Source: an uncultured Anaerolineales bacterium
GTDB lineage: Bacteria; Chloroflexota; Anaerolineae; UBA7937; B3-Chlor
Reading direction: 5' to 3'
Assembly: GCA_964433755.1 (NCBI GenBank)
Contig: CAYSSR010000002.1
Span: forward strand, 81,419-145,418
DNA length: 64,000 nucleotides
Position 1 is the stretch's first letter. Each line of letters starts with the position of its first letter. The notes below the pieces were generated by a model that searched no databases, was not told the origin of the DNA, and was given only the letters and a program-made list of their open reading frames with translations. Of this stretch, positions 2,887-64,000 are shown piece after piece. The position numbers and the translations under genes are program-made.

Positions 2887-2959
2887 CGGGGTGTGGCGCA
2901 GGTGGGAGCGCGCGGCGTTTGGGACGCCGAGGTCGTAGGTTCAAGTCCTATCACCCCGA
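2887..2959 (+). tRNA. tRNA-Pro (anticodon TGG)
   Basis: Cloverleaf drawn by hand: acceptor CGGGGTG/CACCCCG, anticodon stem CGGCG/CGCCG, loop TTTGGGA, T-arm GTAGG-TTCAAGT-CCTAT. CCA is not encoded. Confidence 0.9.
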
Positions 2960-2986
2960 CTAGCTTGCCGCTCTGGCGGCTTACCG

Positions 2987-3059
2987 GCGGGAGTAGCTTA
3001 GTTGGCAAAGCATCTGCCTTCCAAGCAGAGGATCGCGAGTTCGAATCTCGTCTCCCGCT
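2987..3059 (+). tRNA. tRNA-Gly (anticodon TCC)
   Basis: Acceptor GCGGGAG/CTCCCGC, anticodon stem TCTGC/GCAGA, loop CTTCCAA, T-loop TTCGAAT. CCA is not encoded. Confidence 0.9.
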
Positions 3060-3067
3060 CCTCAACG

Positions 3068-3140
3068 GGGCCCATAGCTCAGTGGTCAGAGCGACCGGCT
3101 CATAACCGGTTGGTCCCAGGTTCGAATCCTGGTGGGCCCA
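3068..3140 (+). tRNA. tRNA with CAT anticodon (elongator Met, or Ile2 if lysidinylated)
   Basis: Acceptor GGGCCCA/TGGGCCC with a paired 1:72, anticodon stem ACCGG/CCGGT, loop CTCATAA, T-arm CCAGG-TTCGAAT-CCTGG. Lies only 8 nt after tRNA-Gly. Confidence 0.85.
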
Positions 3141-7836: not shown

Positions 7837-10800
7837 TCACCTGTCATCGGCCAGCAATCCGCCAAACATGTCCAGCGTCTCTTCGGATGGTCCAGTCCCC
7901 AACTCCTCTTCGAGTATCCTCTGCAGCGTCCCTAGTTGCTTGACAGCCCCAGCCCGATCACCCATCTCGAGAAAAGTGCCGATCAGTTCGCGATGGATGT
8001 CCTCTCGGAGCGGGTCCTCGTCCAGGAGTCTATGGCAGGACTCAACGGCATCCTCGAGTCTACCCTGTCCCCGGCAGTAGCGTACCAGGTCCTCCAAAGC
8101 CTGGTGGTACTCTCGTCGAAGGGAATCCCTCAACACATCGGTCCACTCTGAATAGACGTCCTCCAGGTAGTCCCCACGGTAGAGGGAGATCGCTTTCTGT
8201 AGATAGGTCAATCGCTGCGCCCTCGTTGCCTTGCTAGCCTTGGCCAGATTGCGACGAAACTCGTCGACGTCATACTGGTATCTTCTCGACTCTAGCCGAT
8301 ACGCGCCGCCTTCGTACGAAATGGCATCAGTCCCTCCGAGGAGACGCCTCACCTGGAACAAGTAGAAGTGGAAAGTACTGTGCGCCTTGCCCACAGAAAG
8401 ATCAGGCCACAGGGCCGCCACGATCTGGTCCTTCGTCACCACCGGGTGAGCCAAGAAGAAGAACAGCATCTCCTTGGCCCGCAGGCGCAGCTCCTGCGCC
8501 TCGACCACCTCACCATCTCGACAGACGGTGGATGAGCCAAAAGCACGAACGTCAACAGGCGTCGGCGTAACTTCGGCAGGCTCCTTCGATGCCGTCCTGC
8601 TCGCTGGCTCAGTCCTTCCAAGGAGCCTTCTCAGGAGATCTCTGTGGCCCTGTAGTGCCGTCTCTCCCATCGCATACTCCAGCAGCGGACGGCTTCCAGT
8701 GCCCTCGTCGAGCAGCAGTGGATCAAACCCAGACTTGGCGATGATGTCCAGTGCGATCTCCAGATTCAGCATCGCCTCGCGCACCGACTCCACACCGAAG
8801 AGGACGGCGGCCAAGTGGAAACGAGCCTTTGCCAGCTCCTGCCGGGCGCTGCCATCCTGAAAACTGGACACCGCCTGTTCAAGCGTTCGGAGGGCCTCTT
8901 TGTCCTTTCCCTGCACATGGAGCAGAATGCCGCGCGACGCTTGACAGAGGGCCACCTCGTGGTCGGACGCATGTTCGTACGCCTTCTCGATGGCCTGTTC
9001 CAAGAGCTCATCAGCTCTCTCGAAGTTGTGCTGCGCCCGTTCCAGGTTTCCCACAGCGTCCCACACGTACCTGACCAGGAAACCCTCATCGGCCTCCTCG
9101 GCTAGTGCGAGCGCCTTGTCGTACTCTCCTCTTGCCAGGCCGTATTCTCCCCTTGCGCGATACACATCGCCGATCGTAGCCCTGGGATAGGCTTGATGAC
9201 GTAGCAATCCCAGGGACTGGCCCTCATTCAAAGCCTCCTGAAGGGTGTCCAAGGCCTCGTCGAACCTCTCCTGGCGGTAGTAGGCCACGCCGATGTTGTT
9301 CAAGGTCATGGCCATGGAACCCCTCGCACCTAGCCGACGCCAGACCGCCAGAGCCTTCCGGCTGTAGTGCAGATACTTCTCGACATCCACCGAATAGTAG
9401 ATCGTCCCGATGTCGTGCAGAGTAACGGCCGCATCGTACGCGCGCTCTTCTCCAAGCTTCTCGAACAAGGCCAGTGCCTTCAGGAGTTCCTCGAGGCCTT
9501 GCTCTAGCTGCCCCAGCAACCCGTAGCAGACACCCAGAGTCCTATGAGCCTTGGCTGTCAAGACCCCATCTTCGGTGCCAGCAATCAGCGACAGTGCTTC
9601 CTGAGTCTTGGAGATACCCTCGGAGTACTCGGAGCGAAGGCGATGGATAATGGCCTCCTGGAGCAGGGCTTCGACCGTTCCCAGCCTTTCTCCCCTCTCC
9701 GAAAAGCCCTCTTTGGCCTGCTGAAGCGCGCGTATGGCATCACCCAGACGACCGGAGTCGGTCAACACCTTGGACTGCCAGAAGTAGATCCACGGCGAGG
9801 AAGTCACCTTCCCGTTCAGAGAGTCGATCCAGAACAGCAGACTGCTCCATCTTCCTGAACTGAACGCCCAGGTGACTACCTCTTCGACCAACTGCTGAGC
9901 TTCGTCGTAGGCCTCGGCATCCAAGTAGTGGCGAATCGCCTCGTCCCAGTTCTCCCGGGACTCGAACATGTGACCGGCTTTGAGATGGAGCGCTGCATAG
10001 CGATCTCCATCCTCCCGAAGCTTGGACCTCAGGAACTCCTGGAAGAGTTGATGGTACCGGAACCAATCCTCACCATCTGTGGCCAGCCTGGAGACGAAGA
10101 GGTTCTTGTCCTCCAACAGCGCCAGCATCTCGCGCGCGTTGTCCGTGCCCAATAGCTCATTGCAGAGGGAGGGGTTCATGCGTTGAAGGACTGAGGACGC
10201 CATGAGGAACCTCTGCACATCCGGTGGCTGCTGCTCCAACACTTCCCGAGCCAGGTAGGCGAATATCTGGCTACCGTCCCCCTGGGCCAGCGCCATGGTC
10301 TGTAGCAGCCCCTTCCAGAGGGTGTGGGTGGTGAGAAGAATGGCCGTAATCCAGCCTTCAGACTTCTGCGCCAGTCTCTCGGCCTCGTCGGCGGGCAGAT
10401 CCAGATTGTGATTCTGTCGAAGCAACTGCTGGATCTCAGGCCCAGTGAACTTGAGATCGTCGTTCCCAAGCCCCGCCAACTCCCCGCGCGCCACCAATTC
10501 TATGACGGGGAGTCCAGGAGTCGTGGTCCTGCTGGCGAGCAGGATATGACAGTTCTCCGGCAAGCGACGTAGGAGGAAACTGAACAGCGAGGTCACTTCC
10601 CTGGAATCACTGATCAGGTGGAAGTCGTCGATTACCAGGGCAAAGTAGTCTGGGATGGCCTCATAGATCTCGTTGACCAGAGTCCCGGCAACGGACCTGA
10701 GCCCTTCAGCACGGATGCCCTCATTGAGAGCAGCCAGAGCCCTCGCGCCGAACTCCGGAAAGCGCTCCTTGATGGAGGCCACCAGGTACTCCAAGAACAC

Positions 10801-11034
10801 CCTGGGATCGCGATCCCACTCATCCAAGGAGTACCAACAGATGGGCAGATCGGTATCGTGAGCATAGTCGGTCAGTAGAGAGGTCTTGCCGTAACCAGCC
10901 GAGGCGGCAATGAGGATTAGCTTGCGGTCGATGTGCTCGTGGACGAAGTCGACCAGCCGCGCGCGATGCAGCAGATCGCGCCGCTTTCCAGGTACAAGGA
11001 CCTTGGTCCTGACGATCGAAGTCTCCACGCTCAT
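7837..11034 (-). CDS. Large transcriptional regulator: MalT-like STAND ATPase, TPR array, and C-terminal SARP (OmpR-type wHTH + BTAD)
   Basis: N-terminus VRTKVLVPG..LILIAASAGYGKTSLL (Walker A). Central TPR-like repeats. C-terminus VDVRAFGSSTVCRDGEVV...DQIVAALWPD...FYLFQVRRLLG...YRLE...YDVDEF plus a BTAD helical region. ATG 11034 follows GGGAGAGAG. Confidence 0.8.
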   Translation of the reverse strand: MSVETSIVRTKVLVPGKRRDLLHRARLVDFVHEHIDRKLILIAASAGYGKTSLLTDYAHDTDLPICWYSLDEWDRDPRVFLEYLVASIKERFPEFGARALAALNEGIRAEGLRSVAGTLVNEIYEAIPDYFALVIDDFHLISDSREVTSLFSFLLRRLPENCHILLASRTTTPGLPVIELVARGELAGLGNDDLKFTGPEIQQLLRQNHNLDLPADEAERLAQKSEGWITAILLTTHTLWKGLLQTMALAQGDGSQIFAYLAREVLEQQPPDVQRFLMASSVLQRMNPSLCNELLGTDNAREMLALLEDKNLFVSRLATDGEDWFRYHQLFQEFLRSKLREDGDRYAALHLKAGHMFESRENWDEAIRHYLDAEAYDEAQQLVEEVVTWAFSSGRWSSLLFWIDSLNGKVTSSPWIYFWQSKVLTDSGRLGDAIRALQQAKEGFSERGERLGTVEALLQEAIIHRLRSEYSEGISKTQEALSLIAGTEDGVLTAKAHRTLGVCYGLLGQLEQGLEELLKALALFEKLGEERAYDAAVTLHDIGTIYYSVDVEKYLHYSRKALAVWRRLGARGSMAMTLNNIGVAYYRQERFDEALDTLQEALNEGQSLGLLRHQAYPRATIGDVYRARGEYGLARGEYDKALALAEEADEGFLVRYVWDAVGNLERAQHNFERADELLEQAIEKAYEHASDHEVALCQASRGILLHVQGKDKEALRTLEQAVSSFQDGSARQELAKARFHLAAVLFGVESVREAMLNLEIALDIIAKSGFDPLLLDEGTGSRPLLEYAMGETALQGHRDLLRRLLGRTEPASRTASKEPAEVTPTPVDVRAFGSSTVCRDGEVVEAQELRLRAKEMLFFFLAHPVVTKDQIVAALWPDLSVGKAHSTFHFYLFQVRRLLGGTDAISYEGGAYRLESRRYQYDVDEFRRNLAKASKATRAQRLTYLQKAISLYRGDYLEDVYSEWTDVLRDSLRREYHQALEDLVRYCRGQGRLEDAVESCHRLLDEDPLREDIHRELIGTFLEMGDRAGAVKQLGTLQRILEEELGTGPSEETLDMFGGLLADDR

Positions 11035-11182
11035 CTCTCTCCCTACCAAGGCGACAAGTGGCTGTCTCTTGCCGCAATGCCATCCCTGTTAGGGACCCGG
11101 CGATCTTGACTCCGCCCACTCCTTCCGCCAAGCAACCCTGTCTGGGCTCCAGCGTATTCGATCCACCCTCAGCGCGGGCTTA

Positions 11183-18349: not shown

Positions 18350-18421
<72 letters not shown>

Positions 18422-18535
18422 CTTTCTAGAGGAGGCGAATAGCCCTTACTACGAGATCTTCGTAGTACAGAGCGTGATGGACGAGGACCCACCCAGTACG
18501 GGTAGCTGTCGATTGCCGCTCCACAGCGGCCCAAG

Positions 18536-44714: not shown

Positions 44715-44726
44715 GTGAGGGGGGCC

Positions 44727-46847
44727 ATGGAAGACCACGTAGGTCTACTGGGGAAGACGTACCTCTTCGCTGACCTGCCCGAGGAGGACCTTCGTCGTCT
44801 CTCCGCCCTGCTCAAGGAGAGATCCGACCGCGCCCGGAGCACCATCTACCGGCAGGGCGATCCCGACCGCAACCTGTACATCGTGGTTTCGGGCAGCTTG
44901 AGGGCCTGGAACCGCGACGAGCAGGGACGGGACAGGGTCGTCAACCGGCTCCGGTCGGGAGACTGCTTCGGTACCCACTCCCTGTTGACGGGCGAACGCC
45001 GCGACGTGACGGTCGAGGTGGAGGAATCGGCGGTGTTGCTCTACCTGGAGAAGCACGACTTCGACTCGCTCCTGGAGGACCATCCGCGGCTACGACAAAC
45101 ACTGTCGCTACACATCCACGAGCGCTTGAGGCGAGTACCTCTTTTCAGCCAACTGTCCGACGACGACCTCCAGCGCATCGCCCTGGCCATGGGACAGACC
45201 CGGTATCGCCGTCGAAGCACCGTCTATCGCGAAGGAGAGTTGAGCTCCACATTCTACATCATAGAGTCGGGTAAGGTGGCCCTGCTTTCCAGAGAAGAGA
45301 ATGGCCAGGACGAGGTGATCACCCATCTGCGAGACGGGGACTTCTTCGGCGAGCGCTCCCTACTCACCCGACAACCCAGAGATACCAGCGTCCAGACGGT
45401 CGAGGATACCAGATTGCTCTACCTGGACAAGAAGGACTTCGACACGCTCATGCACGAAGTCCCCTCCATCAGAGAGAACCTCAGTCTGGAAGCACAGGCT
45501 CGGCAAGTGATGATCAGCCAACGGTTCCCCTGGCAGCGTCAAGGCGAAGTGCTGATCTCATTGTCCCGCAAGCACTTGTACTCCTTCGTCCGCAGTCTGT
45601 GGGTTCTACTCTTGCCTCTTCTCTGTCTGGTCATCGTCATCACTCTCGTCCGCACCTTCATGTGGCCTCACCTGTGGGCCTACGTCGCCGCCACACTCCT
45701 CGCCGTGCTGTCCGGAGCGATTACTCTCTGGCTATGGGTCGACTGGCGCAACGACTACTACGCCATCACCAACAAGCGAGTAGTGCATCGCGAGAAGACC
45801 GTCCTCCTGCGGGAATCCCGCGAAGAAGCGCCCCTGGAGAACATTCAGGACATCTCCTTGCTCATGCCCGGCATCACTGGCAGAGTGTTCGGCTTCGATG
45901 ATCTGAGCATCCAGACAGCCGGAGCCAAAGGGCGCATCGTCTTCAAAACGGTGGGCAATGCTGCCTGGATCAGGGACAGACTCTTCGAGCAGTTGGAGCG
46001 CATCAAGGCTGAGGAGAGAGGAGAACAGCGAGGCGCCATCCGTGAGAGGTTGCAGATGGAACTGGGCCGGGCAGAAGCGGGGCAGGACCCCCTCTCCGGC
46101 CAGGAAATCCTCTCCGCCGGTGCAGGCTCGGAGCCCTCGCCGTCGGAGCAGCGTAGCAGTCCAGGGCCGACAGGAGTGCTGAGCGCTCTCCGGGGTTATC
46201 TCATTCCGCGCATGCGTACGGAGGAGAACGGTGTCGTGACCTGGAGAAAGCACTGGTTCAGGCTCGTGGAGAGAGTTGTCGGCACAGCCGTTCTGCTGTT
46301 CATCCTCGCGCAGTTGGGGAGCGCAGCCCTGCTAGGGCTTGCCGCGCCCACGCCGCGTTTCGAGGGCCTATTCTGGATCGCTCTGCTTCTGGGAGGTGCG
46401 CTGGCGCTGTTCCTGCTGTGGTTCCGGTACGAGGACTGGCGTAACGACATCTACCAATTGACGAACGACAGAATTATCGACATCGAGAGACTGCCTCTAG
46501 GCCTGCGGGAGGAGCGTAGGGAAGCCAACCTGGCCATGATCCAGGACATCGGATACGAGATCCCAGGGCCCATCGCCAACCTCCTCGACTACGGACACGT
46601 GGTCATCGAAACGGCAGGCAGAGAAGCGGTCTTCACCTTCTCCTGGGTACACGAGCCCCGGCGAGTCCAGGAGGAAGTCTTCGCCCGGATGGACGCCTTC
46701 CGGGAAAGGGAAAGGCAACAACAGAGGGAGAGGAGGGCGGACGAGTTGCTGGACTGGTTCGCCTCCTACACCGAACTGTCACAAGACCAGACAGGTCCTC
46801 CGCCGCAGGCAGACGACCAGAGCCCCAAGAACGAAAGAGGGGCGTGA
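44727..46847 (+). CDS. Membrane protein with two cNMP-binding domains followed by two TM-pair plus bacterial PH (bPH_2/YdbT-like) modules
   Basis: Two copies of the FADLP/FSQLS...G(D/E)...LY(I/II)(V/E)SG...FGE(R/T)SLL pattern. Then two copies of W(V/R)(D/Y)(W/E)(R/D)W?RND(Y/I)Y.(I/L)TN.R(V/I) after TM hairpins. Confidence 0.7.
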   Translation: MEDHVGLLGKTYLFADLPEEDLRRLSALLKERSDRARSTIYRQGDPDRNLYIVVSGSLRAWNRDEQGRDRVVNRLRSGDCFGTHSLLTGERRDVTVEVEESAVLLYLEKHDFDSLLEDHPRLRQTLSLHIHERLRRVPLFSQLSDDDLQRIALAMGQTRYRRRSTVYREGELSSTFYIIESGKVALLSREENGQDEVITHLRDGDFFGERSLLTRQPRDTSVQTVEDTRLLYLDKKDFDTLMHEVPSIRENLSLEAQARQVMISQRFPWQRQGEVLISLSRKHLYSFVRSLWVLLLPLLCLVIVITLVRTFMWPHLWAYVAATLLAVLSGAITLWLWVDWRNDYYAITNKRVVHREKTVLLRESREEAPLENIQDISLLMPGITGRVFGFDDLSIQTAGAKGRIVFKTVGNAAWIRDRLFEQLERIKAEERGEQRGAIRERLQMELGRAEAGQDPLSGQEILSAGAGSEPSPSEQRSSPGPTGVLSALRGYLIPRMRTEENGVVTWRKHWFRLVERVVGTAVLLFILAQLGSAALLGLAAPTPRFEGLFWIALLLGGALALFLLWFRYEDWRNDIYQLTNDRIIDIERLPLGLREERREANLAMIQDIGYEIPGPIANLLDYGHVVIETAGREAVFTFSWVHEPRRVQEEVFARMDAFRERERQQQRERRADELLDWFASYTELSQDQTGPPPQADDQSPKNERGA

Positions 46848-46882: not shown

Positions 46883-47803
46883 CTAGCTCTCTTTCGATGC
46901 TCTCTTGCGGCGTCTCCGCAGGTACCAGATCAGCCACACCAGTACGAATGGCGCTGCGAGAATGGCCCCCAGTGGCAGGAGGAACAGCGCCGCCCAGATC
47001 AGCAGGTCGGTCAGGGCCTGCAGAGCGTCGACCAGAGACCGCAGGGCGTCCCTCGCCTGCTTGAGCGGTTCCCAACCCGGCTCCACGACAGGCTCCTCGA
47101 TCTCCTCTGGCGTCATGGTGATGGTCAGAGTGGCTAGGGCCGCCGAGTTCTCCAGATACTGCATCCTGCCCTTGATCTGCTCGATCTGCTGCCTGACGTT
47201 GGTGATCTCGTTGTAGATAGCCAGGATGCTCTCGGCGTCCCCATGTTTCTCTTGGGCTGAATCCAGAAGCTCCAGGAGCTCCTCCTCGGCCACCTCCAGA
47301 TTGTGGAGGCGAGCCTCGAGGTCCACGTACTCCTCGGTCACGTCCTGCCCCGAAACGTTCTCGCTCTCGAGCTCGATGGCAAGCTCCTTGACGCGCTCTC
47401 TGGCCTGGTCGAAGGAGCCCTCAGGGATACGCACGGTTACAGTTCCCGCCAGTTGGTCGTTGTAGCGCCAGGTCTGCAGATTGGAGACGTATCCCTCCAG
47501 CTCCGTGGCCAATCGCTCTATGTCCGCCAGGGTCTTTTCGGTGTCCTCGACCACGAGTGACAGGCTAGCGGTACGGACGATCATCCGATCGCTGACCCCG
47601 CCCCCGACACCAAAACCCCTGTCGCCCGACTCTTCCATGGCCTCCATAGGCATCTCGGCTTCGGGCACCATGGCTGGCGCCATCTCCGCACTCATCACGT
47701 CCTCGCGCCCCAGCGATGGCGCCGGCGTGGCCGCCATGGCGCACCCTACTACCAGCACGGACATGGCTACAATCACGATCAGACAAGCAGCTCTTCTTCT
47801 CAT
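46883..47803 (-). CDS. DUF4349-domain lipoprotein-like membrane protein
   Basis: Signal/lipobox-like MRRRAACLIVIVAMSVLVVGC, MIVRTASLSLVVEDTEKTL..., a coiled region, and a C-terminal TM helix with an RRRRKR tail. Confidence 0.75.
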   Translation of the reverse strand: MRRRAACLIVIVAMSVLVVGCAMAATPAPSLGREDVMSAEMAPAMVPEAEMPMEAMEESGDRGFGVGGGVSDRMIVRTASLSLVVEDTEKTLADIERLATELEGYVSNLQTWRYNDQLAGTVTVRIPEGSFDQARERVKELAIELESENVSGQDVTEEYVDLEARLHNLEVAEEELLELLDSAQEKHGDAESILAIYNEITNVRQQIEQIKGRMQYLENSAALATLTITMTPEEIEEPVVEPGWEPLKQARDALRSLVDALQALTDLLIWAALFLLPLGAILAAPFVLVWLIWYLRRRRKRASKES

Positions 47804-47872
47804 CTCTGGCCTCCTCTCAGCCTGTTCTCTACCTCTAAGACGACGGCACAGGCCCCAGGGTTCCAATCACCG

Positions 47873-56716: not shown

Positions 56717-56739
56717 AGCGACCGATTCCGTTGTCTGCG

Positions 56740-56774
56740 AGCCGGGGCACGACCGCCCCGGCTTCTTCTCTGTT
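56740..56774 (+). terminator. Intrinsic terminator after the thiolase-DUF35 operon
   Basis: AGCCGGGGC (56740-48) pairs with GCCCCGGCT (56755-63) around a 6-nt loop, followed by TCTTCTCTGTT. Confidence 0.6.
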
Positions 56775-56856: not shown

Positions 56857-57000
56857 AGTAGCGTGTGTTCCTGCGAAGGGATTCGCTCAACACGAAGCAG
56901 TGGTCTGTCGCCGGCGCCGTGCGCGCCTACCTGCATGCATCCGTCCTGACATTCCGATCCAGTGGGTCGGGATGTCTTTCTTTGCCCAGGAGTGTAGACC

Positions 57001-60000
57001 ATGACTCGTGTCTCCGTGTCGCGCAAGACATGCTCAAGAGCCAGAACGCCGCTAGCGGTTGCCGTCCTGGCAATCGTCCTGCTCGCAGCACCTGTCTCCG
57101 TCGCCCAGGGGCCAGGCCTCGAGATCACTGCTGAATCCAGAGTGGCGGACCATCCCCCACGCGAAGCGCTCAGGGCAGACACTGGTTCAACGTCACAAGC
57201 AGCACCACTCTCATCATACCTGGAAGCTGTTGCCATCTCCGATGACTACCTCGAAGCGATCCTCGGCCACGGGTTCGTGTCGTCGCATCTGGAAGTACTT
57301 GGACTCAACGAGAGGCCTGATATCCCTTCGCTCTGGTCTGTGATCTACCGCTATAGCTCGGGAGAACACAGCGTAGATCTCTCCGTCGCCGTCGACCACA
57401 GCACGTCGCCGGTCGATCCCTCCCGCATTGTCGTAGAGTTGTCCAAGATGATCGGCGTGCCGCAGGAGATCACCATCGGCAAGGATCTGGCCGAGCAACT
57501 GGCGCTAGAGAGAGGCGTTCCGGGGCCATACTCCACCAGTTTGGACCTGGACTGGGAGACCCGGCGCCTCGTGTGGCTGGTCCAGAACCACGATCTCGTG
57601 GAGCCCGGCACGACGAAGGGTTTCATGGTCGATGCGGAGACTGGAGGCCTCGTGCCCATCTCAGTGGGCGCGCCGCCTCTCCCACCTCCGAGCAGCGGAC
57701 CTGGCACGCCTGCGGACCTCGGTTTCATCTCCCTCGCAGATCTGGACGCTGGGACCGAGGCCACGCCTCTGGACGAGGGAGAGCTAGGGGCTGGGGACGT
57801 CTACATCAACACCGTATCATGGACCACGAAACTCGTACGTACCGAGAACCAGAGTATCGAGATCTGGAGCTACAACGGCGATTCCTCCTCGCATACACTG
57901 TACCACTACCTCACGTTTCACCTACCAGCCGGCGGGACACAGTACACAGAGGGCGACCACATTAGTGTCTCGCCGGGCAACTGGCTGGTAGATACCTTCA
58001 CCATTGGCAACGGGACGGCGGGTATCGGCATCTACACCTTCGATGTCGGGCTGTGGGAGGAGGGGTACCTGTGGGATACCGAGCTGGACGATCAGAATGG
58101 TAACAAGTTCTACTGGATCTTCGACCGGCCCGGCGGAGTCAGCACCAACTACTACTGTGACGATACGTGGCATCACCCCTCGAACACGACCATCCTCGAA
58201 ACTGCGTTGAACCAGGTCCCCGGCTACACATCGGCCTCCTCGGCCGTCAACACGCTGAAGAGCTATGTCTACTATCTCGTGACGTACAATGTCAACTTTG
58301 GAGAGCGGAGCTCGGACCTCCAAGTCCTGAGTGATCCGCGCGGCGACTGCAACGATTTCTCCGATCTCTACACCGGCCTCGCTCGCGCTATCAACGTCCC
58401 TACCAGAGTGGTTAGCGGCAGCGCATACGAATCTTCTTCGGACTGCGACCCTAACGATGGCATCTCGACGACACTGTGTGGCGTCTATTGCAGTGCCGTC
58501 GACTACTACTGGGGACACCAATGGTCCGAATCCTACTATAGCTCCGGGACCTACGGAACGACCTTCCACCACGTCGATCCCACGTGGAATGATATGGAGA
58601 ATGCCAGGGCCTATCTGAACACATCTTGCGTGAGCCACGTTCACGCTTCGGCCTACACCGAGTGTGACGACGACTATCTCGATGACTGCACACGCAAAGC
58701 CGACACCCTCAGACAGGTCAACGGCTGGCTCAACGTGACCACCACCACCGATGCTGGCTATGACACCAGCTACTGGTGTCCCAACGATGCCGACGACGAC
58801 GGCACCTGCGACACCACCGACACCGACAGAGATGGTGACGGCATCCCTGACGATTCAGATGCAGAGCCATGTGTATGCAATGCTCCGGACGAACCTACAC
58901 CCTCCTCACCGGGAGACTACTCCAACACTTGTGACCCCAGGCCCTTGTTCATCTGGTCTGACGTCGATCGCGCTACTTCCTACCACATTCTGGTGGACGA
59001 CGATTTCGACTTCGGTAGTCCGGTGATAGACACTACCCCCCTGGTTTCCAACTACATGCCAGGGTTCGACATGGTACCCGACACGTACTACTGGAAAGTA
59101 GCGGCCGCCAACGTCTGTGGAGACGGCGCCTTTTCCTTCCCTACGTGGCGGTTCACCGTCGACGAGCCGGCGCCTTCGTCATCCCCAACCCTCCAAGCGC
59201 CGGGGGACGGCACCACCACCTGCGATGACATGCCTTACTTCAATTGGACCGACGTTACGGGCGCCACGTCCTATCATCTCGAGGTGGATAACGACTCCGA
59301 CTTCCTGTCTCCAGAGATAGACGCCACACCGTCCAGCTCGGAATACACCGTGGCCCTGCCCCTGGACCCCGGCCAGTACTACTGGCGCGTACGAGGCTCG
59401 AACTCTTGCGGGGACGGCCCCTGGTCCTCGCCTATCTGGACCCTGACCGTCAACGCCGTCCCCTCCTCGGCCCCGTCGCTGTCCGAGCCAGGGAATGGCG
59501 TCAGCGGCTGTGACCCTACGCCCTACTTCAACTGGTCCGACGTGGATGGGGCCACGTACTATCGCATCCAGGTGGACAACAGCTCAGGCTTCACGTCGCC
59601 TGAGATCAACACCACATCTTCGGTCTCCGAGTACACCCCCGTCAGCGGGTTGGACCCGGACACCTACTACTGGCACGTCCAGGGCTCCAACTCCTGTGGC
59701 GATGGGCCGTGGTCTTCACCAACCTGGAGTTTCACCATCAGTGATCCTGCTCCTTCGACGGCGCCCTCCTTGTCTGAGCCAGGGAACGGGTCCAGCACCT
59801 GCGACGACACTCCGCTCTTCAACTGGACCGATGTGAGCGGTGCCACGTCCTATCGCATCCAGGTGGACAACAACTCAGGCTTCACGTCGCCTGAGATAGA
59901 CACCACCTCTTCGGTCTCCCAGTACACCCCCGTCAGCGCATTGGACCCGGACACCTACTATTGGCGCGTGCAAGGGTTGAACTCATGCGGAGACGGACCC

Positions 60001-63000
60001 TGGTCGTCACCGACCTGGCAATTCACCATCAATGCTGCGCCCTCCACTGCGCCTACACAGTCAGAGCCTCCCAATGCATCTGGCACCTGCGATTCCACAC
60101 CATTGTTCGACTGGTCTGTCGTCGGCGGCGCCACTTCCTACGATATCCAGGTGGACAACGATTCCAACTTCTCTTCGCCTGAGATAGACACCGATACTTC
60201 CGTGTCCAACTACACACCCGCCGCTCCCCTATCCCCCAACCTCTACTTCTGGCGGGTGAGGGCTTCCAACAGTTGCGGAGACGGCCCGTGGTCTTCTCCC
60301 GCGTGGAGCGTCACCGTCAACCAGGCGGCGCCGACGTCGGCCCCGAGTCTGTCCCAGCCCGGCAATGCCTCTAGTACGTGCGACGACACCCCACTCTTCG
60401 ACTGGTCCGACATCGGTGGGGCCACCTCCTATCGTATCCAGGTGGACAACAACTCAGGGTTCACCTCACCGGAGATTGATGCCACGCCTTCGGTTTCGAA
60501 CTACACGTCATCGACGGGCCTTGCACCTGATAGCTACTACTGGCGCGTGCAGGCCTCCAATGGCTGTGGCGATGGCCCGTGGTCCTCCCCGTGGAGCTTC
60601 ACCGTCGATCCGCCGGCTCCCTCGTCGGCACCCACACTGTACGATCCCAGCAATGGCACAGGGACCTGCGATCCGACTCCCGGTTTCGACTGGTCCGACG
60701 TAACCCGAGCCACCTCCTACCGGCTCCAGGTGGACAACGACTCTGGCTTCGGCTCTCCCGAGATTAGCGTCACACCATCGGTGTCCAACTACACTCCATC
60801 GTCCAGTCTCGCCCCGGACACGTACTACTGGCGGGTGCAGGGATACAATAGCTGTGGAGACGGTCCCTGGTCCTCCCCTGTATGGAGTCTCACCATCAAC
60901 CAGTCGGCCCCGTCCTCCGCACCCACGCTCTACGAACCGACTAATGGCCTCGTGACCTGCGATTCCACACCCTACTTCGACTGGTTCGCCGTCACTGGAG
61001 CGACTTCGTATCGTATCCAGGTCGACAACGACTCCGGCTTTGGGTCTCCAGAGATCAACACCACGACGTCGGTATCGAACTACACTCCTTCGTCCTCGCT
61101 GTCTCCTGGAACCTACTACTGGCGGGTGCAAGGATACAACGGTTGTGGGAACGGCCCCTGGTCGTCGCCCACCTGGAGCATAATCATCGATACACCCGCT
61201 CCGTCATCTGCGCCTCTCTTGTCGCTGCCGACCAACGGGTCAGGCACCTGCGATTCGACTCCTTATTCCGACTGGTCCACTGTCACCGGTGCTACGTCCT
61301 ACCGCATCCAGGTAGACAACGATCCAGGATTCGGTTCGCCAGAGATCGACGCGACGCCATCCGCATCTGACTACACAGCGCCATCATCCCTTTCTCCCGA
61401 CACGTACTACTGGCGGGTACAAGGACACAACGACTGCGGCGATGGGCCCTGGTCCTCTCCCTGGAGCTTCACCGTCAACGACTCGGCGCCCGGGTCGGCG
61501 CCCACTCTCTCCACGCCTCCCGATACCTCAACCACCAGCGACAGTACGCCCTATTTCGACTGGTCCGACGTCACGGGAGCAAGCTCTTATCGTATCCAGG
61601 TGGACAATGACTCAGACTTCGGATCACCGGTGATAGACACCTCGCCCTCGGCCTCGAACTACACACCAGGTTCCTCTCTATCTGACGGCACGTACCACTG
61701 GCACGCACGAGCGTCCAACGGCTGCGGCGATGGGCCCTGGTCCTCGTCCTGGAGCTTCACCGTGGATACTTCCACAGTGGTGGTAGGGCCTCTGGTTTAC
61801 GAGACCCACGTGTCAGACGATGACGACCTCGGTGAGAGCAGTGGCAACGACAATGGCGTCGTCGACTGTGGAGAGACTATCGAGTTGCTGGTGACACTAT
61901 TCAACGAAGGCACGGATACGGCCACAGGCGTGAGTGCTGCCATCAGCGAGAGCGATCCGTACGTGGCCCTTGTGAGCAACACCACCAGTGGCTACCCCGA
62001 CATCCCCGGGGAAAGCACAGGCACCAACACCGACGACTATGACTTCACAGTCGATCCCGACACCCCAGATGCACACGTCATCCATTTCGACCTGGACATC
62101 ACGGCCTCCAACGGCGGCCCCTGGTCGGATTCCTTCGACGTCACCGTGTCCTGTGGCAATAGCGCGCCCGCTCTCTCCTGGACCGGCGAGACCAACTACG
62201 TCTCCGACGGCCTCCATCCCGAGAGCGGCGGCACGAGTGACGACTACGAATACCGCATCCAATACAGCGACGCGGACGGGGACGCCCCCAGCTACGTCCG
62301 TGTGCACATCAAACAAGATGGTGCGGGCATCCCAGGCAGCCCCTTCACAATGGCCTGCGCCAGTGGCGACTACACGACGGGGGTTATCTGCCAGTACACC
62401 CAATCGGGACTGGACGAGGGCTCAGGCTACACCTACTACTTCGAGGCGCAGGACGACCAGGGCAATCCTGCCACGCCCACCTCAGAGTTGGATGCCCCAG
62501 ACGTCAGCGATGGTGGTTTGCCCAAGTGGACCTTCCTGGTCTATCTCAACGGCGACGTCTCGAGCGCCACGGAAGACGCTGCGGTCGACGACTTCCTGGA
62601 GATGTCCAGCATCGGTTCCACCAGTGACGTCAACATCGTGGTCTGGTTCGATCCATTGGGCGACACCTACACGTCGGATCACACCTACGAGTTCTACGTG
62701 ACCGAGGACATGACCCCCGATCCGGCCAACGGAATCTACCTGGGCGAGAAGAACATGTCGGACCCCCAGACCCTCGTCGATTTCGTCCAGGCGGGGAAAG
62801 CCAACTATCCCGCAGAGCACTACGCCGTCATCATCTGGGATCGAGGCAGCGAGCTGAGGCGCGACCCTCCCGAGGACACCATCCTGGGAGACATCTGTTT
62901 CGACGTCAACCCCTTCTTGTCCAGCTACGCTATGAGCATGACAGAGCTGCGCAACGCCCTCAGCACCATCACCAACGACGGCGCCGAGCCCCTGGATCTG

Positions 63001-64000
63001 TTGGGCTTCGACGCCTCCTGGATGGCCCTCGCGGAGATCGATAACCAGTTGAGACCCTACGCCGACGTCAGGGTCTCCTCCCAGGGAGCGGAGCCTGGTG
63101 ATGGGTGGGAGTACGTCGAAGTCTTGTTTTGGCTGACAGTGGTCCCAGAGATGACACCTGCCGAGTTCGGCTACCAGATTGTGGACTGGTACTGCCCCAG
63201 TTACGGTAACGAGCCCACCATGTCCGCCGTTGACCTACATACTCCCTACACAGATCTGAACGACGCCGTGGACGATCTGGCCGATGCCCTCATGGCTGGT
63301 GCGGCCGCCCACCACGCCGACATCGCCACTGCCCGCGCCAACACTCAGGTCTTCTCAGACACCCACTACGTGGACCTCTACGACTTCGGCGACCAGCTCA
63401 ATGCCTACGTGAGCGATGCCGCGATCAACGCCGCTGCGACCGATGTCATGAACGCCGTGGAGGGAGCGGTGATCAACGAGTGCGGCTCGTCGATCTGGCC
63501 CGACGCCCACGGCATCAGCATCTACTTCCCGGAATCCGAGGAGGACTACGACGAAGACTACGACGGCTACCAGGGTCGGCTATTGTTCACCGCCGATCAC
63601 AAGTGGGACGAGTGGCTCCACGCCTTCTACACCATGGGCTCCATCGCTCCCTTCCCCTTCTACGACGGCTTCGAGTCAGGAACGCTGGGCCTGGGCTGGT
63701 CCACCTTCGTCACCAGTACCGGACGCGTCCGGGTGTGTAACCCACCCTTCGACTACGAGGGCGACTACGCACTGTGCCTCGACAACGAGTTCGAGCACGC
63801 CACCGATTCGATTGCCGCCACCATCCTGACCATCGACCTTAGCGGTCAGCCGGAGGTCTACCTGGACTTCTGGTGGAGGGACTGGTACGACACGACTCAG
63901 CCGCAGGATGGGGTGTTCTTCAGCGATGACTGGGGCCTCACCTGGCACCCAGCCTATCCCTTCGAGCTGGACCCGGTGAGCTGGTACGCCCACCGTATCA
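57001..64000 (+). CDS. Giant secreted multidomain protein, 3' end beyond the window (more than 2,333 codons)
   Basis: I translated the frame by hand from ATG 57001 (AGGAG 8 nt upstream, in-frame TAG at 56995-56997) to nt 64000 and found no stop. No track ORF uses this frame here, which fits an open-ended ORF being omitted. Conserved protein motifs stay in frame throughout. Confidence 0.85.
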   Translation, partial: MTRVSVSRKTCSRARTPLAVAVLAIVLLAAPVSVAQGPGLEITAESRVADHPPREALRADTGSTSQAAPLSSYLEAVAISDDYLEAILGHGFVSSHLEVLGLNERPDIPSLWSVIYRYSSGEHSVDLSVAVDHSTSPVDPSRIVVELSKMIGVPQEITIGKDLAEQLALERGVPGPYSTSLDLDWETRRLVWLVQNHDLVEPGTTKGFMVDAETGGLVPISVGAPPLPPPSSGPGTPADLGFISLADLDAGTEATPLDEGELGAGDVYINTVSWTTKLVRTENQSIEIWSYNGDSSSHTLYHYLTFHLPAGGTQYTEGDHISVSPGNWLVDTFTIGNGTAGIGIYTFDVGLWEEGYLWDTELDDQNGNKFYWIFDRPGGVSTNYYCDDTWHHPSNTTILETALNQVPGYTSASSAVNTLKSYVYYLVTYNVNFGERSSDLQVLSDPRGDCNDFSDLYTGLARAINVPTRVVSGSAYESSSDCDPNDGISTTLCGVYCSAVDYYWGHQWSESYYSSGTYGTTFHHVDPTWNDMENARAYLNTSCVSHVHASAYTECDDDYLDDCTRKADTLRQVNGWLNVTTTTDAGYDTSYWCPNDADDDGTCDTTDTDRDGDGIPDDSDAEPCVCNAPDEPTPSSPGDYSNTCDPRPLFIWSDVDRATSYHILVDDDFDFGSPVIDTTPLVSNYMPGFDMVPDTYYWKVAAANVCGDGAFSFPTWRFTVDEPAPSSSPTLQAPGDGTTTCDDMPYFNWTDVTGATSYHLEVDNDSDFLSPEIDATPSSSEYTVALPLDPGQYYWRVRGSNSCGDGPWSSPIWTLTVNAVPSSAPSLSEPGNGVSGCDPTPYFNWSDVDGATYYRIQVDNSSGFTSPEINTTSSVSEYTPVSGLDPDTYYWHVQGSNSCGDGPWSSPTWSFTISDPAPSTAPSLSEPGNGSSTCDDTPLFNWTDVSGATSYRIQVDNNSGFTSPEIDTTSSVSQYTPVSALDPDTYYWRVQGLNSCGDGPWSSPTWQFTINAAPSTAPTQSEPPNASGTCDSTPLFDWSVVGGATSYDIQVDNDSNFSSPEIDTDTSVSNYTPAAPLSPNLYFWRVRASNSCGDGPWSSPAWSVTVNQAAPTSAPSLSQPGNASSTCDDTPLFDWSDIGGATSYRIQVDNNSGFTSPEIDATPSVSNYTSSTGLAPDSYYWRVQASNGCGDGPWSSPWSFTVDPPAPSSAPTLYDPSNGTGTCDPTPGFDWSDVTRATSYRLQVDNDSGFGSPEISVTPSVSNYTPSSSLAPDTYYWRVQGYNSCGDGPWSSPVWSLTINQSAPSSAPTLYEPTNGLVTCDSTPYFDWFAVTGATSYRIQVDNDSGFGSPEINTTTSVSNYTPSSSLSPGTYYWRVQGYNGCGNGPWSSPTWSIIIDTPAPSSAPLLSLPTNGSGTCDSTPYSDWSTVTGATSYRIQVDNDPGFGSPEIDATPSASDYTAPSSLSPDTYYWRVQGHNDCGDGPWSSPWSFTVNDSAPGSAPTLSTPPDTSTTSDSTPYFDWSDVTGASSYRIQVDNDSDFGSPVIDTSPSASNYTPGSSLSDGTYHWHARASNGCGDGPWSSSWSFTVDTSTVVVGPLVYETHVSDDDDLGESSGNDNGVVDCGETIELLVTLFNEGTDTATGVSAAISESDPYVALVSNTTSGYPDIPGESTGTNTDDYDFTVDPDTPDAHVIHFDLDITASNGGPWSDSFDVTVSCGNSAPALSWTGETNYVSDGLHPESGGTSDDYEYRIQYSDADGDAPSYVRVHIKQDGAGIPGSPFTMACASGDYTTGVICQYTQSGLDEGSGYTYYFEAQDDQGNPATPTSELDAPDVSDGGLPKWTFLVYLNGDVSSATEDAAVDDFLEMSSIGSTSDVNIVVWFDPLGDTYTSDHTYEFYVTEDMTPDPANGIYLGEKNMSDPQTLVDFVQAGKANYPAEHYAVIIWDRGSELRRDPPEDTILGDICFDVNPFLSSYAMSMTELRNALSTITNDGAEPLDLLGFDASWMALAEIDNQLRPYADVRVSSQGAEPGDGWEYVEVLFWLTVVPEMTPAEFGYQIVDWYCPSYGNEPTMSAVDLHTPYTDLNDAVDDLADALMAGAAAHHADIATARANTQVFSDTHYVDLYDFGDQLNAYVSDAAINAAATDVMNAVEGAVINECGSSIWPDAHGISIYFPESEEDYDEDYDGYQGRLLFTADHKWDEWLHAFYTMGSIAPFPFYDGFESGTLGLGWSTFVTSTGRVRVCNPPFDYEGDYALCLDNEFEHATDSIAATILTIDLSGQPEVYLDFWWRDWYDTTQPQDGVFFSDDWGLTWHPAYPFELDPVSWYAHRI
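58893..61767 (+). repeat. Ten tandem in-frame coding repeats of 288/291 nt (96/97 aa) inside the giant ORF
   Basis: The (I/L)(Q/E/L)VD(N/D) codon block recurs at 58990, 59281, 59569, 59860, 60148, 60439, 60727, 61018, 61309 and 61597. Consensus: P..G....CD.TP.F.WSDV.GATSYRIQVDN.SGF.SPEID.T.S.S.YTP...L.PDTYYWRVQ..N.CGDGPWSSP.W.FT(V/I). Confidence 0.9.

Follow-up and report, generated by a model that had tools for sequence, protein, structure and literature searches.

Among the bacterial and archaeal proteins of the transglutaminase-like superfamily, the majority are hydrolases by prediction or experiment, such as PNGase and the pseudomurein endoisopeptidases PeiW and PeiP. PepSY modules form part of the inhibitory propeptides of M4 metallopeptidases. 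The PepSY domains of Bacillus YpeB provide a chaperone-inhibitor precedent for a co-encoded lytic enzyme, SleB (mBio 2026, PMC13556211). Clan CD enzymes depend on a His/Cys dyad, and in the C11 peptidase PmC11 the acidic residue of the S1 pocket, Asp177, stands two residues before the Cys (PMC4850288). Here we analyze a giant gene that starts at position 57001 of a 64,000-nucleotide stretch of DNA from an uncultured Anaerolineales bacterium (GenBank assembly GCA_964433755.1, contig CAYSSR010000002.1, positions 81,419 to 145,418 of the forward strand; referred to below as the window, whose own numbering we use). It encodes a secreted protein with an apparently working transglutaminase (TGase)-fold head, a small module of a separate family ahead of it (the N-module), a stalk of fn3-type repeats and, near the far end, a clostripain (C11) homologue that appears to have lost its catalytic dyad. 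Every single fold is of a known kind, and it is their combination that is unusual.

Frame 1 is open from the ATG at 57001 to the last base of the window (64000), and our translation of these 2,333 codons contains no stop. A first-pass annotation of this DNA had read the frame in the same way and had remarked that the gene is invisible in the accompanying list of open reading frames (ORFs); indeed, at 57001-64000 the list contains only short ORFs in other frames and omits those that leave the window. The ORF, its leader, the Pfam domains and the orthologues all agree with the giant secreted multidomain protein that the annotation had proposed. The predicted signal peptide was also borne out, with a basic n-region, a 17-residue hydrophobic core and a cleavage site between VSVA and QG that can be read from the translation. 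The features of the gene, with residue numbers in brackets, are:

57001..57111, plus strand: start codon and Sec-type signal peptide (1-37), with equivalent leaders in the orthologues
57184..57660, plus strand: N-module (62-220), two probable tandem helix-plus-beta-sheet units; match to the family hidden Markov model (HMM) 6.5e-62
57721..58200, plus strand: beta-rich domain before the TGase core (241-400); no Pfam family, always accompanies the core in relatives
58201..58680, plus strand: TGase-fold core (401-560), by PF01841 match and alignment with 3isr
58681..58920, plus strand: Cys/Asp-rich segment (561-640) with a DxDxDGxxDxxD thrombospondin (TSP) type-3-like motif at 58786-58860; conserved in L002, L085 and L086
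58894..61785, plus strand: ten tandem 96-aa fn3-type repeats (632-1595), with a Cys pair in repeats one to nine and a single Cys in the tenth
61780..62154, plus strand: module A (1594-1718), a recurrent beta module, weakly DUF11/CARDB-like (DUF11 E = 0.021)
62158..62508, plus strand: module B (1720-1836), a recurrent Ig/fn3-like module whose profile matches a 6fhj domain (6.3e-5)
62524..63630, plus strand: Peptidase_C11 domain (1842-2210), dyad replaced by Arg1948 (codon 62842-62844) and Ser2006 (63016-63018), Asp2004 kept
63643..64000, plus strand: first copy of module C (2215 onward), jelly-roll-like with an Asp-box SxDxGxTW, cut by the end of the window

Two full-length orthologues were found (P and L numbers are our handles for proteins and for contigs or loci). 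P0001, on contig L001, has 2,562 aa and is 78% identical over 99% of the visible window protein, and the protein encoded on the 34-kb contig L084 is 79% identical over 2,331 residues. Both have the domain order of the window protein, ten repeats each and the same Arg/Ser substitutions in the C11 domain, and they end in two copies of module C followed by '...SLLPLVANQYP' or '...SLLPLAANQYQ'. Since the full-length orthologues measure ~2,560 aa, ~230 residues (roughly 700 nt) should lie beyond the window, which ends inside a genuine gene of ~2,560 codons. The surroundings are conserved as well: the upstream DUF35 gene of L084 is 84% identical to its counterpart in the window, and a convergent VIT-VWA gene lies downstream in both L084 and L001 (94% identity between the two).

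That the gene is a pseudogene, or a chimera of two unrelated genes, is barely credible. The gene does leave the window, and its two cassettes do occur separately elsewhere, but three assemblies from different samples contain an uninterrupted ~2,560-aa ORF with the same neighbors, and the overall ratio of nonsynonymous to synonymous substitution rates (dN/dS) is 0.135. We rejected an assembly chimera because the three independent assemblies agree, and a decaying pseudogene on the strength of the intact syntenic orthologues and the low dN/dS. Across the domains dN/dS ranged from 0.03 to 0.25, with the lowest value, 0.029, in the Cys/Asp-rich segment and 0.145 (at dS ~0.7) in the C11 domain; dS between the orthologues is high (0.4-2.0), which makes these values approximate. 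They indicate that every domain is under purifying selection, the dead C11 domain included.

Among billions of proteins, only these three orthologues (window, P0001, L084) combine the TGase head, the fn3 stalk and the pseudo-C11 tail. The architecture, which the first-pass annotation had found unfamiliar, is not a described one, although with two more full-length orthologues it is not unique to the window. In a homologue search with the whole protein, the fn3 repeats dominated the matches and a single true orthologue was returned.

The C11 domain departs from its family at the catalytic residues. PF03415 matches residues 1847-2206 at 2.2e-37 (129.9 bits; cut-off 25.8), and the match spans model positions 1-356 of 359, in agreement with the earlier proposal of a clostripain-like fold that has lost its dyad. 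Arg1948, in WDRGS, stands opposite the catalytic His of the NHGG/SHG motifs in 9cip (clostripain), 6n9j and 6mzo, and Ser2006, in FDASWM, stands opposite the Cys of FDAC. His was present in 92 of 95 aligned C11 homologues and His together with Cys in 89, while Arg with Ser occurred only in the window protein and P0001; the L084 protein carries the same pair. Judging from these replacements, peptidase activity is expected to be absent. Asp2004, the equivalent of PmC11 Asp177, is retained in the FDAS of the window domain, and because this S1 residue is kept it is plausible that the domain binds basic side chains without cleaving. One could argue that the domain is still a peptidase with Ser2006 as its nucleophile, since the Cys-to-Ser change is conservative and the S1 Asp and the fold have been kept under selection. 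We consider this very improbable, given that the general-base His has become Arg in all three orthologues and that clan CD needs the His/Cys dyad (PMC4850288).

The window domain is 41-56% identical to secreted C11 peptidases of Anaerolineae type. Its nearest relatives (52-56%) are domains of active type; the secreted Anaerolineae-like proteins to which they belong measure 500-1,100 aa and also contain modules A and C. The tail cassette as a whole is common to active secreted C11 and metzincin proteins. A neighbor-joining tree, a rough one built on distances, groups the three Arg/Ser sequences in a single clade, whose long branch is nested within the His/Cys domains; this nesting indicates that the dyad was lost once, in the ancestor of the window clade. 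The domain resembles the clostripain family (MEROPS C11: clostripain, PmC11, thetapain) in its full-length match, its acidic S1 Asp and the modules A and C that flank those peptidases too. It differs in that its clade is fixed for Arg/Ser and in its position at the far end of a 2,560-aa chain, behind another enzyme domain. On these sequence criteria it is a homologue of the clostripain family that is probably not a peptidase. A metagenomic protein, P0015 (608 aa), represents another inactive C11 lineage: it has Arg/Trp, is 48% identical to the window domain and carries module A ahead of it, and the tree does not clearly show whether its His-to-Arg change and that of the window clade have a common origin.

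At the other end of the protein, Transglut_core (PF01841) matches residues 407-516 with 40.7 bits (3.3e-10; cut-off 23), within the 38-78 bits of its relatives. The first-pass annotation had placed all three catalytic-type residues here, and they fall at exactly the codons it gave: Cys450 (58348), His506 (58516) and Asp526 (58576), in the motifs G-x-C-x-x-F, H-x-W-x-E and V-D-P-T. Pfam thus recovers both the transglutaminase-like and the C11 fold. Wherever the alignment of a close relative extends over these columns, the Cys-His-Asp triad is conserved, and the Cys motif aligns with its counterpart in 3isr, a structural-genomics protein. From the HMM score and the triad we regard the core as a bona fide member of the transglutaminase-like superfamily, with which it shares the above-cut-off Pfam match, the triad motifs and a beta-domain ahead of the core. 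With its triad intact, the head is apparently a working cysteine enzyme.

Within that superfamily the window protein belongs to a rare subfamily, set apart by its own beta-domain, the trailing Cys/Asp-rich segment and an obligatory N-module partner. Only 23 of 1.84 billion cluster representatives match the head at E <= 1e-10, and a scan for the head in 185,579 species-representative genomes found none. Several metagenomic relatives share the head alone, in addition to the full-length orthologues and a conserved gene pair described below; their tails are FG-GAP/TcdB-like, PKD/Big_9 or S-layer domains, and the C11 tail occurs only in the window clade. The literature searched contained nothing joining Anaerolineae and transglutaminase-like proteins. 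As to the TSP type-3-like calcium-binding stretch that had been proposed behind the core, the motif is present, and P0225, which matches the Cys/Asp-rich stretch, carries six Pfam TSP_3 repeats (1.5e-19), but the isolated window segment itself gave no Pfam TSP_3 (PF02412) match.

We then considered the N-module, which forms a distinct family of ~160 aa. A search with the N-terminal region as query returned only P0008, and the family was revealed by an exhaustive search of the same 1.84 billion cluster representatives, in which it appears mostly in small proteins (200-400 aa) that have a signal peptide or a membrane anchor. The first-pass annotation had placed a PepSY-like module at 57470-57662. 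This falls on the second unit of what we find to be a remotely PepSY-like double family. PepSY matches below threshold occur in 9 of 18 family members, the best at 5.6e-4, and no other family recurs; P0131, for instance, reaches 17.8 bits against a cut-off of 24. The family profile found no match in the PDB. In an AlphaFold2 (AF2) model, residues 157-222 form a helix plus four strands, with a similar unit before them, at a predicted local distance difference test (pLDDT) of 50-77 as means of 10-residue blocks (34 overall). The sequence pattern and this part of the model, the only semi-confident one, fit two tandem PepSY-like units.

The gene neighborhoods tie this module to the TGase head. It is fused to the TGase core in the window protein, P0001 and the L084 protein, and also in L002, L086, L090 and P0129. 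Elsewhere it is encoded on its own, and at all eight independent loci that have a stand-alone N-module gene and a visible downstream gene, that downstream gene is a member of this TGase family, runs in the same direction and starts -8 to +40 nt away. Two more stand-alone loci, L091 and L094, end at the contig edge with no downstream gene to read. In the pairs at L002/L003, L086, L090 and L092/L093 the TGase protein encoded downstream carries a second N-module, fused to it, at L085 and L089 it begins directly at the beta-domain and TGase core, and at L088 only its first 88 residues are visible, with a weak N-module match. This pattern of fusion, fission and conserved adjacency argues strongly for a joint function of the N-module and the TGase core.

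Two observations concern the distribution and setting of these genes. L091, which carries the stand-alone N-module protein P0146, has an archaeal-type context (a Hef-like helicase/nuclease, a LonB-type protease and DUF5788), and the methanogen S_layer_C domain is present in other members of the family; both Bacteria and Archaea may possess the N-module/TGase system. At L002 2-7425 (also in L003), upstream of the pair formed by P0008 and its TGase gene, two more giant secreted proteins make up a cluster of very large exoproteins, one with Peptidase_M23, Inhibitor_I36 and fn3/Ig repeats (>1,336 aa) and one with NAGPA, PA14 and PKD domains (1,138 aa).

The PepSY partners described so far offer an analogy for what the N-module might do. 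In the FTP-PepSY propeptides of M4 enzymes and in the YpeB/SleB pair, as with the N-module, a small helix-plus-beta-sheet module (a probable fold in the N-module) is either N-terminal to a secreted hydrolase or its operon-mate, and some stand-alone N-module copies are membrane-anchored, as is YpeB. The N-module differs from PepSY in scoring below the Pfam threshold and in being a fixed double unit of ~160 aa with a family of its own, and it differs from the M4 and YpeB systems in its partner, a TGase-fold cysteine enzyme where those have a metalloprotease or a lytic transglycosylase. The literature searched held no paper that mentions PepSY together with transglutaminase-like proteins. The analogy, together with the stand-alone genes upstream of TGase genes, suggests a chaperone-inhibitor role for the N-module towards the TGase head.

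We also asked whether the N-module could instead be a docking or dimerization module that pairs with a membrane-anchored stand-alone copy and so tethers a giant protein that has no anchor. Such tethering would make sense of P0008 and P0134, stand-alone N-module proteins with C-terminal transmembrane anchors, of the two copies (stand-alone and fused) present at L002, L086, L090 and L092, and of the absence of any anchor in the giant protein itself. It sits poorly with the window and L084 loci, which have no adjacent stand-alone copy (a second N-module was not found anywhere in the other 57 kb of the window), with the TGase proteins at L085 and L089, which have no fused N-module to pair, and with the many stand-alone copies that have no obvious C-terminal anchor. 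We regard docking as quite unlikely, and a chaperone-inhibitor role remains our preferred reading of the N-module.

Between head and tail lies the stalk. Its repeats score as fn3, DUF4962-N and Ig_Rha78A_N; fn3 (PF00041) reaches 3.8e-28 over the whole protein, and a single repeat scores 22.4 bits, just under the cut-off of 25. The ten Cys-pair repeats of the earlier reading are exactly ten and of fn3 type, apart from the single Cys in the tenth, and 19 of the 41 Cys residues in the secreted window protein lie in them. The two beta-sandwich-like modules that it had placed after the repeats reappear as recurrent beta modules: module A has 13 copies in 10 fetched proteins (its PDB profile search gave only E >= 0.15) and module B 54 copies in 25. 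Module C, which had been taken for a ConA/LamG-like domain running off the window, does continue in the orthologues and may be a jelly roll, one that seems closer to MAM and carbohydrate-binding modules than to LamG. Pfam gave no LamG or MAM match for it, and its sequence-level matches in the PDB span the Asp-box motif only. The best Foldseek matches were the MAM-containing enteropeptidase, the neuropilin MAM domain and CBM6/16/35, all weak (E 4e-3 to 5e-2, template modeling (TM) scores 0.3-0.45). From this layout the protein can be described as two cassettes, head and tail, joined by a stalk.

The first-pass annotation had suggested inspecting the C-terminus for a PEP-CTERM or other sorting signal. 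The full-length C-termini of P0001 and the L084 protein contain no PEP-CTERM or other known signal and no hydrophobic helix; no NCBIfam sorting-signal model matched P0001, and LPXTG, PEP-CTERM, GlyGly-CTERM, T9SS CTD and RTX/T1SS signals were not recognized. We did observe a motif, (V/I)(Y/F)(L/V)P(L/V/I)(V/I)(L/T)(R/K)x, close to the C-terminus (2-4 residues away) in six related secreted proteins (P0015, P0021, P0024, P0049, P0098 and P0125), with no transmembrane helix after it. It is internal in P0030, P0045 and P0051, and P0001 and the L084 protein (L084:867-8693) have a degenerate form at their 'SLLPLVANQYP'-type ends. NCBIfam and the literature searched held no relevant context for a 'YLPLV/LPLVLR' motif. 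It may be a lineage-specific C-terminal tag.

The giant repeat-rich adhesin-like proteins of bacteria resemble the window protein in having a signal peptide, an array of near-identical Ig-type repeats, acidic motifs of calcium-binding type and terminal functional domains; the window protein differs in having no recognized anchor or secretion signal and in pairing an apparently active N-terminal enzyme with a C-terminal pseudo-enzyme. The mature protein is also extremely acidic (isoelectric point ~4.05; 14.2% Asp+Glu versus 3.1% Lys+Arg, uniform over all domains). These properties raise a different possibility, that this is a structural surface, sheath or adhesin protein of a filamentous cell, whose head is a true transglutaminase that covalently cross-links it to itself, the envelope or matrix proteins and whose stalk and tail are structural or adhesive. 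A giant repeat-rich chain with no sorting signal, head-sharing relatives with S-layer, PKD, Big_9 and FG-GAP domains, the acidity with its calcium-binding-type motifs, and an intact triad, compatible with transamidation, all speak for such a role. Members of the superfamily are mostly hydrolases, however, the tail cassette derives from secreted peptidases and not from adhesins, and a pro-domain-like partner is more typical of degradative enzymes. We consider a structural role possible but doubtful.

On balance we lean, without great confidence, towards a composite reading in which the protein is a secreted TGase-fold enzyme, controlled by the N-module and carried on a stalk, with a non-catalytic C11/jelly-roll tail for targeting. 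The TGase-fold head would be the only catalytic center, predicted to act outside the cell on proteins or peptides, as a cysteine protease, isopeptidase or transamidase. The N-module would serve as an intramolecular chaperone-inhibitor that folds the head, masks it until release, or both. The ten fn3 repeats would be a spacer roughly 30-35 nm long, if each fn3 domain measures ~3-3.5 nm, and the tail of modules A and B, dead C11 domain and jelly-roll, borrowed from secreted peptidases, would form a non-catalytic binding or targeting end that holds the enzyme on its substrate or surface.

Several points weigh against this reading. The window N-module has no Pfam match even at E <= 10, PepSY (PF03413) included. 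The AF2 model of the head (residues 38-640), built on a three-sequence alignment, has a pLDDT of 34, a quality that allows neither a fold search nor a judgment on whether the N-module touches the active site. Protease and transamidase cannot be told apart by an intact triad. The membrane-anchored P0008 and P0134 fit a docking role as well as an inhibitory one, and stand-alone N-module genes are absent from the window, L001 and L084 loci. Finally, the fold of module C is weakly assigned (AF2 pLDDT 61, predicted TM score 0.65). A bolder version of the composite is that these proteins share an undescribed zymogen-type control, in which a double PepSY-like chaperone-inhibitor is supplied in cis or from an upstream gene, in Chloroflexota and (by one locus context) archaea, and in which the C11 domain is a 'grip' for Arg/Lys peptides that delivers or holds targets across the ten-domain stalk. 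We think it improbable that all of this is correct.

The signals upstream of the gene are:

56739..56764, plus strand: terminator-like hairpin that ends the upstream DUF35/ChsH2-like gene; segment conserved in L084
56828..56856, plus strand: sigma-70-like promoter candidate (TTGACT, 17 nt spacer, TAACAT, TG extension), a consensus match only
56948..56976, plus strand: 13-bp leader hairpin followed by a U-tract, just 5' of the ribosome-binding site and ATG

The terminator-like hairpin after the upstream gene and the promoter-like site agree with the independent transcription unit that had been proposed, and CAGGAG forms the ribosome-binding site ahead of the ATG. At the same place L084 (~942-983) has a counterpart, a 10-bp hairpin followed by a U-tract, and the two stems differ by compensatory changes (CCG/CGG versus CTG/CAG). 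An Rfam scan of the leader region gave no match. The hairpin and U-tract could be an attenuator or an mRNA-stabilizing element.

The neighboring genes are of housekeeping type: TsaB, an amidohydrolase, Maf, a PfkB kinase and a thiolase with the DUF35/ChsH2-like protein. The GC content of the giant gene is like that of the remaining window; with this and the conserved synteny we rejected a horizontally acquired island. The GyrB encoded in the window shares 78% identity with its counterpart in an Anaerolineales metagenome-assembled genome and 69% with that of Pelolinea submarina, in keeping with a host in the Anaerolineales (Chloroflexota). Farther away, the window contains a 1,070-aa ORF at 7837-11049 (minus strand) with many TPR repeats and a C-terminal BTAD domain, a large SARP/MalT-like regulator; a cluster of tRNAs Pro-TGG, Gly-TCC and Met-CAT within 254 bp at 2887-3140; and a separate tRNA-Gln (TTG) at 18350-18422. 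A 710-aa protein at 44715-46847 (plus strand) has two cyclic-nucleotide-binding domains and a bacterial PH domain, and adjoins a DUF4349 protein at 46883-47866 (minus strand).

No long-standing question is opened by the finding, which matters chiefly for the pseudo-enzyme and for the hypothesis of N-module/TGase pairing. If the reading is correct, a clear and evolutionarily fixed pseudo-enzyme would join the clostripain family, with close active relatives that allow comparison. A small, previously unnamed family, the double PepSY-like N-module, would be strictly paired with one transglutaminase-fold subfamily, which suggests a possible way in which TGase-fold enzymes outside the cell are folded or held inactive and would extend the PepSY chaperone-inhibitor idea past metalloproteases and SleB. 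The envelope and extracellular proteome of the Anaerolineales is little known, and the protein would be a candidate major surface protein or exo-enzyme of these abundant, poorly cultured filamentous bacteria.

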